A stretch of DNA of 64,000 nucleotides from assembly GCA_964016885.1 (NCBI GenBank), contig OZ024742.1:328538001-328602000 (forward strand), written 5' to 3'. This document shows, piece after piece, positions 47,333 through 50,419 of the stretch (position 1 is the first letter of the stretch; each line of letters starts with the position of its first letter). The notes beneath the pieces were generated by a model. The model was not told where the DNA came from and made no database searches. It saw nothing but the letters and a program-made list of their open reading frames with translations. This DNA is from Eledone cirrhosa. Lineage: Eukaryota. The position numbers and the translations under genes were made by a program.

Positions 47333-48345
47333 GAAAATTTAAGTAAGTAAGTTAAACAAATTTTTTAAACTTTTTTTTAAAATTTTGTTATTTTACGTCT
47401 TTTATATTATTGTTCTGCATCCTCCTGCATTCAACCACCTAGGTACTATGACATAACCTGTGTATTTGCTGGCATTAGCGTACATCTGTGCGCTTATGCT
47501 AGTAGATATATTAAATTATCTATATTTATCTCCAAATCACTGACTTGTCGAGCAAACCTGCCAAAACCACTTCTAATTTTTTGGGGGGTGTTAGTAGGCG
47601 TCTGTCATCTAACCATCCAATTCCTACTGACTAGCCTCTGTGTCACGTGATTGATTCTTTAGAATCGGCCATTTGACCAGAGGCAGCGAGCATTTCAGTG
47701 CATGGAATTCAGTCCCCGCTAGCTGTTCCATCTACCGAATTATTATTATTTTTATATGAGTCCCCGGTGTCCGCGCATTGCCTGGAGACTTAGCTGAGAA
47801 TAGACTCCTTGATGACGCAATGAATTCTCGACAGTTAGATTACGTAACTGTCTTTATACCATTGCAGAAACTAATTAGTTGTAGTGAAAATTTAAGTAAG
47901 TAAGTTAACATTTTTTTAAAAACTTTCTTTAAAAATTTTCTTATTTTACGTCTTTTATATTATTGTTCTGCATCCTCCTGCATTGAACCACCTAGGTACC
48001 ATGATATAACTTGTGTATTTGCTGGCATTAGCGTACATCTGTGCGCTTATGTTAGTAGATATATTAAATTATCTATATTTATCTCCAAATCACTGACTTG
48101 TCGAGCAAACCTGCCAAAACCACTTCTAAATTTTTTTGGGGTGTTATTTTACGTCTTTTATATATATATATATATATATATAAAAAATTAGTATATCTAG
48201 CGACATATGTATACAGATGCATACCTATGCTAGCAAATATATATGTTTTGTCTTAGTAACTTTGTGGTTCTATGCAAGGGGATGCAGAACAATTATATGA
48301 AAGACGTAAATAAGAAAGTTATGAAAATTGACTTACTAAAATTTC

Positions 48346-48426
48346 ACTCCAACTAATTAGTTTCTGTAAGGGGATAAATATGGTTACGGAGTGTATCCAT
48401 AGAGAAGCCTTACGTCATCAGGGAGC
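48346..48426 (-). ncRNA. Type I hammerhead ribozyme
   Basis: Reverse complement of the 49680-49760 motif. Confidence 0.75.
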
Positions 48427-48865
48427 CTATTCTCAGATAAGCTTCCAGGCAATGCGGGGACACTGGGAACTTATATAGAAATAATTCAGTGGATGGAAAA
48501 AAGCGAGCGGTGCTAGATTCCAAGACATTGAAAAATTCACTGCCTACTTGGTCAAGTGGCAAATTCAAAAGAATCAATCACGTGACACCGAGGTTAATCA
48601 GCCAGGAGTGATGGTGCTATTAAGACAGAGCCTAGCCACTACTATTAATCACAGTAGTAATTTCGGCAATTTTGCTCAACAAATAATTTGGAGATAATTA
48701 TAAAGAATTAGTATATCTACCGACATATGTATACAGATGCATACCTATGCTAGCAAATATATATGTTTTGTCTTAGTAACTTTGTGGTTCTATGCAAGGG
48801 GATGCAGAACAATTATATGAAAGACGTAAATAAGAAAGTTATAAAAATTGACTTACTAAAATTTC

Positions 48866-48946
48866 ACTCCAACTAATTAGTTTCTGTAAGAGGATAAATA
48901 TGGTTACGGAGTGTATCTATAGAGAAGCCTTACGTCATCAGGGAGT
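48866..48946 (-). ncRNA. Type I hammerhead ribozyme
   Basis: As above; one stem II pair becomes G-U. Confidence 0.75.
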
Positions 48947-49679
48947 CTATTCTCAGCTAAGCTTCCAGGCACTGCGGGGACACTGGGAACTTATATAAAA
49001 ATAATTCAGTGGATGGAAAAAAGCGAGCGGGGCTAGATTCCAAGACATTGAAAAATTCACTGCCTACTTGGTCAAGTGGCAAATTCAAAAGAATCAATCA
49101 CGTGACACTGAGATTAATCAGCCAGGAGTGGGGGTGCTATTAAGACAGAGCCTAGCCACTACTATTAATCACAGTAGTAATTTCGGCAAATTTTGCTCAA
49201 CAAATAATTTGGAGATAATTATAAAGAATTAGTATATCTACCGACATATGTATACAGATGCATACGTATGCTAGCAAATATATATGTTTTGTCTTAGTAA
49301 CTTTGTGGTTCTATGCAAGGGGATGCAGAACAATTATAACATATATATTTGCTAGCATAGGTATGCATCTGTATACATATGTCGGTAGATATACTAATCC
49401 TTTATAATTATCTCCAAATTATTTGTTGAGCAAAATTTGCCGAAATTACTACTGTGATTAATAGTAGTGGCTAAGCTCTGTCTTAATAGCACCCCCACTC
49501 CTGGCTGATTAACCTCAGTGTCACGTGATTTATTCTTTTGAATTTGCCACTTGACCTAGTAGGCAGTGAATTTTTCAATGTCTTGGAATCTAGCCCCGCT
49601 CGCTTTTTTCCATCCACTGAATTATTTTTATATAAGTTCCCAGTGTCCCCGAATTGCCTGGAAGCTTAGCTGAGAATAG

Positions 49680-49760
49680 ACTCCCTGATGACGTAAGGCT
49701 TCTCAATGGATACATTCCGTAACCATATTTATCCCCTTACAGAAACTAATTAGTTGGAGT
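49680..49760 (+). ncRNA. Type I hammerhead ribozyme
   Basis: actcc-CTGATGA-c gtaagg..ccttac a-GAAA-ctaattag-TT-ggagt. Confidence 0.8.
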
Positions 49761-50419
49761 GAAATTTTAGTAATTAAGTCAATTTTCATAACTTTCTTAT
49801 TTACGTCTTTCATATATATATATATATATATATATATATATATATATATATATATATATATATATATATATAGATAGATAGATAGATAGATAGATAGATA
49901 GATAGATAGATAGATAGATAGATAGATAGATAGATATGCTTAAGTATAGGTATATATATATAAATATATTGTGGAATGTGATATAAGGCTAAATAATGCA
50001 AAATTGACGGAAAGATGAAAGTAATGAACGAGTTAGTTACCTGGCATTCTTTTTTTTTTTTTGTTTTGCTTTTGTTTCTTCCGTCCTAACATACCTTCAT
50101 CTTACAGTCCATTTGCATTGTTTAGCCTTATATCACCTTTCACATTATATATTATATACAATGCTTCAAGGAATTACAATAATATATATATATATATATG
50201 CATGTCTATACTTGCATATATATTTGTGTGCATGGGCTCCAAGGGAAGTATTTTTAAATGCAACGCTAAAATAATGATGTATTAACGTGACCTATTGTTT
50301 ATCAAACCATTAATAAAGGAATAGTAAAGAATGGGTAGCTCTTGATGGTTAAATTGTTTAATAATGTCCAATGGTTAATATATATTTTATGGGTTCCTTG
50401 AAGTGTTTTTCCCTTTTAG

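Follow-up and report, generated by a model that had tools for sequence, protein, structure and literature searches.

The elements that most resemble the locus described below are the non-LTR retrozymes of animals, for whose mobility Penelope-like elements have been named as candidates (PMC7229834), a link argued from co-occurrence and homology by Li et al. 2026 (10.64898/2026.07.22.740005); the main text of another study (PMC13282606) makes no mention of ribozymes. Penelope-like elements themselves leave inverted copies, mostly 5′-truncated, with a tail at one end and a bias toward microsatellites (PMC8557442). The purified protein of one Penelope-like element has been shown in vitro to cut both strands and extend them, starting at two RNA sites that flank the tail, and insertion did not require ribozyme cleavage (PMC11167929). 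For Drosophila Penelope, an internal promoter has been reported (PMC2377424). As to how animal retrozyme RNA escapes cutting itself, the answer of PMC7229834 is that self-pairing is probably not involved in most animals, most circles having been predicted without a self-block, with some mussel ones as the exception.

Here, we analysed a window of 64,000 nt from the genome of Eledone cirrhosa (contig OZ024742.1), in which an initial annotation had noted two neighbouring repeat arrays, A and B, with compensatory changes in a hammerhead ribozyme. This observation was confirmed, and the feature proved larger than described. We consider it highly probable that B was recently copied from a non-coding retroelement present in high copy number, a non-LTR retrozyme whose mobilisation in trans is likely due to a Penelope-like protein with reverse transcriptase (RT) and GIY-YIG domains.

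Layout of the locus and extent of the repeat family

Arrays A and B are built from the same repeat and are separated by a short (TA)n run:

46207 to 48160, plus strand: array A, 3.5 units of ~553 bp each
48161 to 48183, no strand: (TA)n run separating A from B
48184 to 49338, minus strand: left arm of B, 2.2 units, its 3′ end carrying a ~115-nt tail that runs into (TA)n
49338 to 49812, plus strand: right arm of B, 0.9 unit, head-to-head with the left arm, its untailed 3′ end running into (TA)n

The initial annotation had taken B as an array of ~520-bp units spanning 48184 to 49812. The unit length (520 to 525 bp in B, ~553 bp in A) and the homology to A stand, but the two arms meet head-to-head at 49338 and do not form a head-to-tail array. 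(TA)n flanks B on both outer sides, and the run at 48161 to 48183 would be the insertion target. Array A is 5′-truncated inside a ribozyme and has an untailed 3′ end followed by (TA)n. This end is preceded by an internal jump at 48146, where A (within 48136 to 48160) leaves the unit midway and resumes in its last ~15 nt, a short TGTTA-like word being common to both sides of the jump, reflecting either a template jump or a later deletion. Just past the TA/GATA run of B, a short inverted pair (49957 to 50158; 68 bp, 85%) may represent another small head-to-head insertion. No ORF of at least 150 aa was found in 46207 to 49812, i.e., across A and B, so there is no RT plus GIY-YIG ORF in this interval; the GC content of the repeat is 0.34 to 0.36, below 50%, and no LTR-like layout was seen in it.

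Pattern searches were run over the octopus's own 3.0-Gb genome, with reversed patterns as controls. A strict ribozyme pattern gave 3,389 exact matches versus 0 for its reversal and a looser one 8,627 versus 2, so the ribozyme is not a chance occurrence; a pattern for the unit junction gave 4,786 matches versus 0. Grouping 89 full units at 93% identity yielded 17 groups, and A and B, which are 73 to 77% identical, represent two subfamilies, out of at least 17, within a single non-coding repeat of 520 to 560 bp. A further clade, with GGAAGUG after the cut, accounts for 2,460 matches. Fully paired stem II types include GTAAGG, GCAATG, GTAATG, GTATGG, GAAAGG, GGAATG and GGGATG, a range that links A and B through intermediates with a single double change (GTAATG/CATTAC). 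The proposal that B is a second family is thereby refuted; it is one subfamily in a continuum. In many subfamilies, units follow each other head-to-tail with nothing in between (64 distinct cut-to-cut monomers), and arrays of three or more units are seen in A and at loci L198 and L238. The repeat is also present at high depth outside this assembly, in contigs of one sample of unrecorded kind. A literature search found no description of this repeat family.

Several other elements share the window. At 8250 to 9730 lies a distinct non-coding element, also arranged head-to-head, whose type I hammerhead has a long loop, a palindromic stem III and U.U at the stem II base (8319 to 8360, minus strand; 9625 to 9666, plus strand); this ribozyme is also found in L117. 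Hammerhead-like motifs of other families occur at 54695 to 54843 (a close head-to-head pair), 56878 to 56900 (a minimal motif also present in L117, L121 and L125) and 58790 to 58821 (a minimal motif with an altered GAAA box). There is an apparently intact LINE (36688 to 41093, minus strand) with a 528-aa ORF1 and a 956-aa ORF2 containing AP endonuclease and RT, as well as LINE fragments (10530 to 17360 and 45114 to 46088), among them a ~970-bp 3′ end with a zf-RVT match in three copies at 93 to 94% identity.

Ribozyme structure and selection on the RNA

Three copies of the ribozyme lie in B:

49680 to 49760, plus strand: type I hammerhead of the Penelope type, in the right arm
48866 to 48946, minus strand: second copy, with G-U at stem II pair 6
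48346 to 48426, minus strand: third copy, with G-U in stem I

The ribozyme consists, in order, of the 5-bp stem I, CUGAUGA, an extra C, the 6-bp stem II (G-C first), a long loop II, an extra A, GAAA, a palindromic stem III in which AACUAAUUAGUU is self-complementary, the GUU cut site and the second strand of stem I. In the plus-strand copy, stem II is formed by 49693-49698/49735-49740, and the cut (GUU|) is predicted between 49755 and 49756. The motif follows the Penelope-type consensus CUGANGA-H-G..C-GAAA-N palindrome-NUH with a short helix I (consensus from PMC4209133), departing from it by the extra A between C11.1 and G12, which is present in A, B and the subfamilies seen. In addition, U17 is predicted to be able to pair with A14, and, given this pairing and the extra A, ribozyme activity may be low. 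Loop II measures 35 to 40 nt, carries an inner hairpin of its own and is nearly fixed in length (68 off-length matches versus 8,627). Co-folding of two copies into a double hammerhead gave -46.2 kcal/mol as compared to -36.6 for two monomers, i.e., 9.6 lower. A search of Rfam found nothing at gathering score, nor any hammerhead at E ≤ 5; miRNA matches at E < 5 were rejected as (TA)n or fold-back artefacts.

The base changes originally reported for stem II were confirmed: it reads GCAATG/CATTGC in A (two copies intact, a third with one mismatch) and GTAAGG/CCTTAC in two of the three B copies, the third (48866 to 48946) having TCTTAC with a G-U wobble. The CUGAUGA/GAAA core, stem I (ACUCC/GGAGU) and stem III are, as claimed, common to A and B in the copies compared. 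Loop II does differ between the arrays, but not simply so, in that its inner hairpin also covaries.

Covariation was assessed with an imitation of R-scape, rather than R-scape itself (a G-test with APC against 12 and 60 null alignments, made by shuffling substitutions on the tree), on the 89 units and on 156 segments reaching from the putative lock described below to the ribozyme, copies with no recognisable lock region having been filtered out. Among the 137,550 pairs of the 89 units, stem II pair 2 ranked first, with a blind E of 0.33 and a structure-guided E of <0.001, while pair 5 scored 0.52. In the 156 segments, pair 2 ranked first and pair 5 joint second. The larger alignment, in which the initial annotation expected its claim to stand or fall, thus gave a divided answer: covariation is supported with structure guidance (E of 0.0002 and 0.0014 for pairs 2 and 5, respectively) but not significant in the blind all-pairs test (0.15 and 0.97). 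For pair 2, each of the four Watson-Crick combinations occurs, and within loop II one pair has an E of 0.029 in the same segments; stem I shows one double change, in one clade, which is not significant. Many unrelated column pairs score nearly as high, owing to phylogeny.

Pairing was kept in 60 of 80 shared changes (those in at least three copies) as compared to 83 of 234 private ones, a count that favours pairing insofar as the helices were chosen from these same sequences. Shared one-sided changes produced 29 G-U versus 6 A-C mismatches and private ones 42 versus 47 (p = 3e-4), and this bias points to selection on the sense RNA while a lineage was active, followed by neutral decay of copies once inserted. 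Shared changes were also few in the catalytic parts, with 0 in the 3′ catalytic strand (8.4 expected) and 4 in the 5′ core (10.1 expected).

Paired changes could, in principle, also arise by template switching or conversion in DNA inverted repeats, or reflect the shared descent of two lineages, with no selection on the RNA involved. The blind E values, the near-equal scores that phylogeny confers on unrelated columns and the resemblance of the lock to the ribozyme's own 5′ strand would all be in keeping with this explanation. We nonetheless regard it as very improbable and largely refuted, considering that pair 2 has taken all four Watson-Crick forms, that the arms of stem II are 6 bp long and ~37 nt apart, and that the G-U over A-C excess is strand-specific and unpredicted by DNA repair. 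Selection on RNA structure, as initially proposed, is therefore supported by the stem II covariation in 89 and 156 copies, the retained pairing and the mismatch bias; the stem II covariation flagged earlier is real, yet expected by itself.

Conserved islands around the ribozyme had been proposed as additional cis-elements:

49665 to 49679, plus strand: island cttagctgagaatag, predicted to pair with 49761 to 49774
49634 to 49667, plus strand: upstream hairpin with a conserved loop (gtgtcc.cgca.tgcctgg); covariation not significant
49518 to 49538, plus strand: E-box island GTCACGTGA; also at 49088 to 49108 and 48568 to 48588, minus strand

Both of the islands named at the outset are present in all three B and all three A copies with 0 to 2 changes. 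Constraint is visible in the shared changes, with 1 versus 8.8 expected in the E-box island, 4 versus 12.6 in the hairpin-loop island and 1 versus 10.9 in a third. However, folding predicts that cttagctgagaatag is likely the 5′ strand of an extended stem I, and hence part of the ribozyme itself rather than an extra element. The E-box is a plausible promoter element. The same E-box also occurs in terminal repeats of autonomous Penelope-like elements and, in two of five families, these repeats contain TCACGTGAC (or TCACATGAC), with CCAATC and TGGCGCGAAA close to it, which we take to be USF-, NF-Y- and E2F-type sites.

Insertion anatomy and candidate partners

For the anatomy of insertions, 75 non-redundant loci were taken in genome order from the first 100 of the 4,786 junction places. 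Their 3′ ends cluster at two points, with 53 arms ending at unit position ~520, 66 arms ~115 nt beyond it and 10 arms elsewhere; TA-rich sequence comes after 50 of the 53 untailed ends and 42 of the 66 tailed ones. Of 47 head-to-head pairs, two of which (L178) perhaps stem from one duplicated event, 38 combine one tailed with one untailed arm and none has two tails, the others being one pair with two untailed arms (a chaining artefact on inspection) and eight with an unclassed end. A further 33 loci contained 16 pairs (10 one-tailed, 0 two-tailed, 1 with two untailed arms, 5 unclassed). B obeys this one-tailed rule, and the segment between its two types of 3′ end has a structure of its own:

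48184 to 48298, minus strand: tail, with two conserved hairpins
49346 to 49391, plus strand, and 49235 to 49280 and 48714 to 48759, minus strand: other copies of the long hairpin of the tail

By analogy with the Penelope-like protein studied in vitro (PMC11167929), the tail is likely a protein-binding region or the region where RT starts. The RT-binding role suggested earlier for the conserved islands would be a better fit for these tail hairpins.

The 5′ ends are enriched at the predicted cut (positions -3 to +20), with 26 ends in 151 passes as compared to 59 in 1,171 elsewhere (p = 6e-7), most of them at +6/+7. In arms already longer than 200 nt, the figures are 11/40 and 78/1,331. By hand count, the enrichment amounts to 19/145 (p = 5e-4) with symmetric pairs counted once and to 14/139 (p = 0.03) with such pairs dropped. 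The AAAATTTT palindrome or stalling at the extended stem I could be behind it. At the same time, 100 of the 127 arms continue across a cleavage site; taken together with the 5′-end peak, this suggests that cut RNA is likely one template among others. A second peak that might mark the transcription start was looked for, and none was clear.

The genome holds many elements with RT and GIY-YIG domains, several of which have C-x4-C-x2-C ahead of GIY-YIG, a Neptune/Nematis trait (PMC8557442), and insert in (TA)n. The one-tailed inverted form in (TA)n recurs in an autonomous RT plus GIY-YIG element (L124). An autonomous element with a homologous terminal repeat was not found among 50 GIY-YIG loci (of at least 150 matches listed, from 10,596 candidates), nor did the unit show homology to autonomous terminal repeats in the five families compared; of the 68 matches that keep stem III but have a loop of different length, those listed included no autonomous element either. 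At two loci considered as partners (L120 and L111), a unit lies near a Penelope-like ORF with (TA)n in between or in opposite sense, so these are independent insertions. At L158:1730-2300, a subfamily A unit and the 3′ end of a Neptune-like terminal repeat are fused with no TA spacer between them, possibly as a template-switch chimera; this is one case that an insertion with a short deletion explains equally well, and it was not counted as partner evidence.

Young autonomous Neptune-like elements, with ORFs of up to 938 aa, are present at L112, L113, L120, L121, L124 and L107, and their terminal repeats contain degenerate hammerhead cores with UUUGAAAA in place of CUGANGA and a conserved ACCGGU palindrome. 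L122:1550-3000 contains a further non-coding hammerhead family in head-to-head arrangement (~760-bp unit), which lies in (TA)n and has what we presume to be CCAAT- and E2F-like motifs; it sits directly upstream of an RT plus GIY-YIG ORF that is ~26% identical to the Neptune-like ones.

Might the units then be detached terminal repeats of an autonomous element, left behind by truncated insertions, rather than an independent non-autonomous family? Penelope-like insertions are mostly 5′-truncated (PMC8557442), and the ~150 loci examined are a sample of thousands. We still judge this improbable, as units abut head-to-tail with no intervening sequence in many subfamilies (the 64 monomers above) and 21 unique 5′ flanks have no common upstream sequence and no ORF continuous with the unit.

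The predicted lock and comparison with known systems

RNAalifold, applied to 17 subfamily representatives, predicts that the ribozyme strand spanning the cut pairs with a segment located 250 nt upstream, in a 15- to 16-nt duplex with U17 at or beside a small loop. This putative lock adjoins the E-box on its upstream side:

49496 to 49511, plus strand: putative lock or splint, complementary across the cleavage site; also at 49115 to 49130 and 48595 to 48610, minus strand
46514 to 46528 and 47066 to 47080: lock copies in array A

In the GGAAGUG-target clade, the lock reads C(A/G)CUUUCC in 15 of 17 copies (the other two are unparsed or truncated), a version found in none of 126 GGAGUG copies, and each lock type prefers its own target (-15.4 versus -12.1 and -13.3 versus -11.4 kcal/mol); the rare third target GGGAGUG, however, is bound more strongly still by GGAGUG-type locks (-16.7). 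The compensatory change is a single event, and its column pair is not significant (E 2.3). In 48 of 55 copies, the lock outdoes all other windows tested. Across 23 subfamily sequences, it is predicted to form (P > 0.5) in the precursors of 20, the circles of 17 and the linear monomers of 14, while stem I is predicted in no precursor and one circle, as compared to 11 of 23 with the lock removed; in the family A copy of the window, the lock is weak (P 0.0 to 0.3). The lock changes together with its target, and the folds predict that it blocks the ribozyme. In a transcript starting below the E-box, the first ribozyme would be free and later ones locked, an arrangement that fits both the 5′-end peak and the frequent read-through.

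In our preferred explanation, transcription would start from an internal promoter near the E-box, and the first hammerhead, probably double via the 12-nt palindrome, would cut slowly at GUU and set the 5′ end of the RNA. The upstream complementary lock would keep downstream hammerheads shut, such that the template survives and is read through, and its helix could also splint a monomer for circularisation. The borrowed protein would bind the tail hairpins and cut both strands of a (TA)n site, and two cDNAs would be primed at both ends of the tail and then joined head-to-head. A stronger version, in which doubt slightly outweighs belief, combines a viroid-style switch and circularisation splint (the lock, lying just upstream of the promoter, would span the scissile bond in a duplex that leaves a pyrimidine loop at the cut, so that only the first ribozyme of a transcript fires and later ones are shielded) with insertions made by a dimeric Penelope enzyme that primes both strands at two RNA sites ~115 nt apart; the loci would then be direct genomic evidence for Penelope mobilising retrozymes.

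To a strict rolling-circle retrozyme, we give close to an even chance. Here, both ribozymes would cut, RtcB would ligate the monomer and RT would run round the circle to produce multimers, with the lock acting as splint and shield; this is compatible with the preferred explanation, with the circle as the main template. Arrays of three or more units (A, L198, L238) and the many arms that read through the cut site agree with it, as do the stability of predicted circles (z < -4 in 11 of 14 and about -4.0 in one more), the position of the junction inside the predicted lock helix and the fact that repeats of coral, mussel and axolotl have been shown to form circles (PMC7229834). However, multimers are equally explained by long read-through transcripts of arrays, and the 5′ ends at the cut argue for linear cut templates in part of the insertions.

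Alternatively, the ribozyme may no longer cut, its fold being kept because the Penelope protein binds it as a scaffold, with RT stalling at the helix to give the 5′-end pile-up. The non-canonical extra A, the GUU triplet and the long loop II of nearly fixed length are consistent with such a role, as are the low in vitro activity of Penelope-type hammerhead motifs (PMC4209133) and the lack of cleavage in eight of nine frog dimers (10.64898/2026.07.22.740005). We find it unlikely in view of the depletion of shared changes in the 3′ catalytic strand and 5′ core, and a reactive scissile bond would more readily account for a lock centred on it.

How does the repeat compare with known systems? By the features examined in its sequence, it belongs with the animal non-LTR retrozymes derived from Penelope-like elements, a known kind. 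Like metazoan retrozymes (PMC7229834; 10.64898/2026.07.22.740005), it has non-coding tandem units with a type I hammerhead each, low GC and thousands of dispersed copies alongside Penelope-like elements. The units, at 520 to 560 bp, compare with 170 to 400 nt in PMC7229834 and 51 to 972 bp in Li et al. 2026 (10.64898/2026.07.22.740005). It differs by a Penelope-type rather than canonical ribozyme and by one-tailed head-to-head insertions in (TA)n. The self-block predicted here is, according to PMC7229834, lacking in most animal retrozyme circles, with the exception of some mussel ones, whose folds bear on how far the lock is new.

With EN+ Penelope-like elements (Neptune/Poseidon; PMC4209133, PMC8557442, PMC11167929), the repeat shares the extra base after A9, G10.1-C11.1, a 6-bp helix II, a 5-bp helix I and a palindromic helix III, as well as partial tandems, an inverted 5′-truncated copy, a tail at one end and a microsatellite target. 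In contrast to them, it has no ORF, its tail is ~115 nt as compared to their 30 to 40, it carries the extra A between C11.1 and G12 and a 35- to 40-nt loop II with a hairpin, and it has no homology to any autonomous terminal repeat compared. Plant LTR retrozymes and hammerhead viroids (PMC4918200) likewise sequester a ribozyme strand by complementary sequence in the predicted circle, but have type III hammerheads, LTRs, PBS/PPT and Gypsy partners; the block here is instead a single 15- to 16-nt segment ~250 nt upstream.

Two questions thereby become testable. As to what moves animal retrozymes, the Penelope insertion signature itself is seen here in dozens of loci; as to how their RNA escapes self-cutting, a conserved, co-changing complementary segment is predicted to prevent it. 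The repeat is set apart from known retrozymes by a clear Penelope insertion signature with a long tail, an atypical core and a predicted lock.
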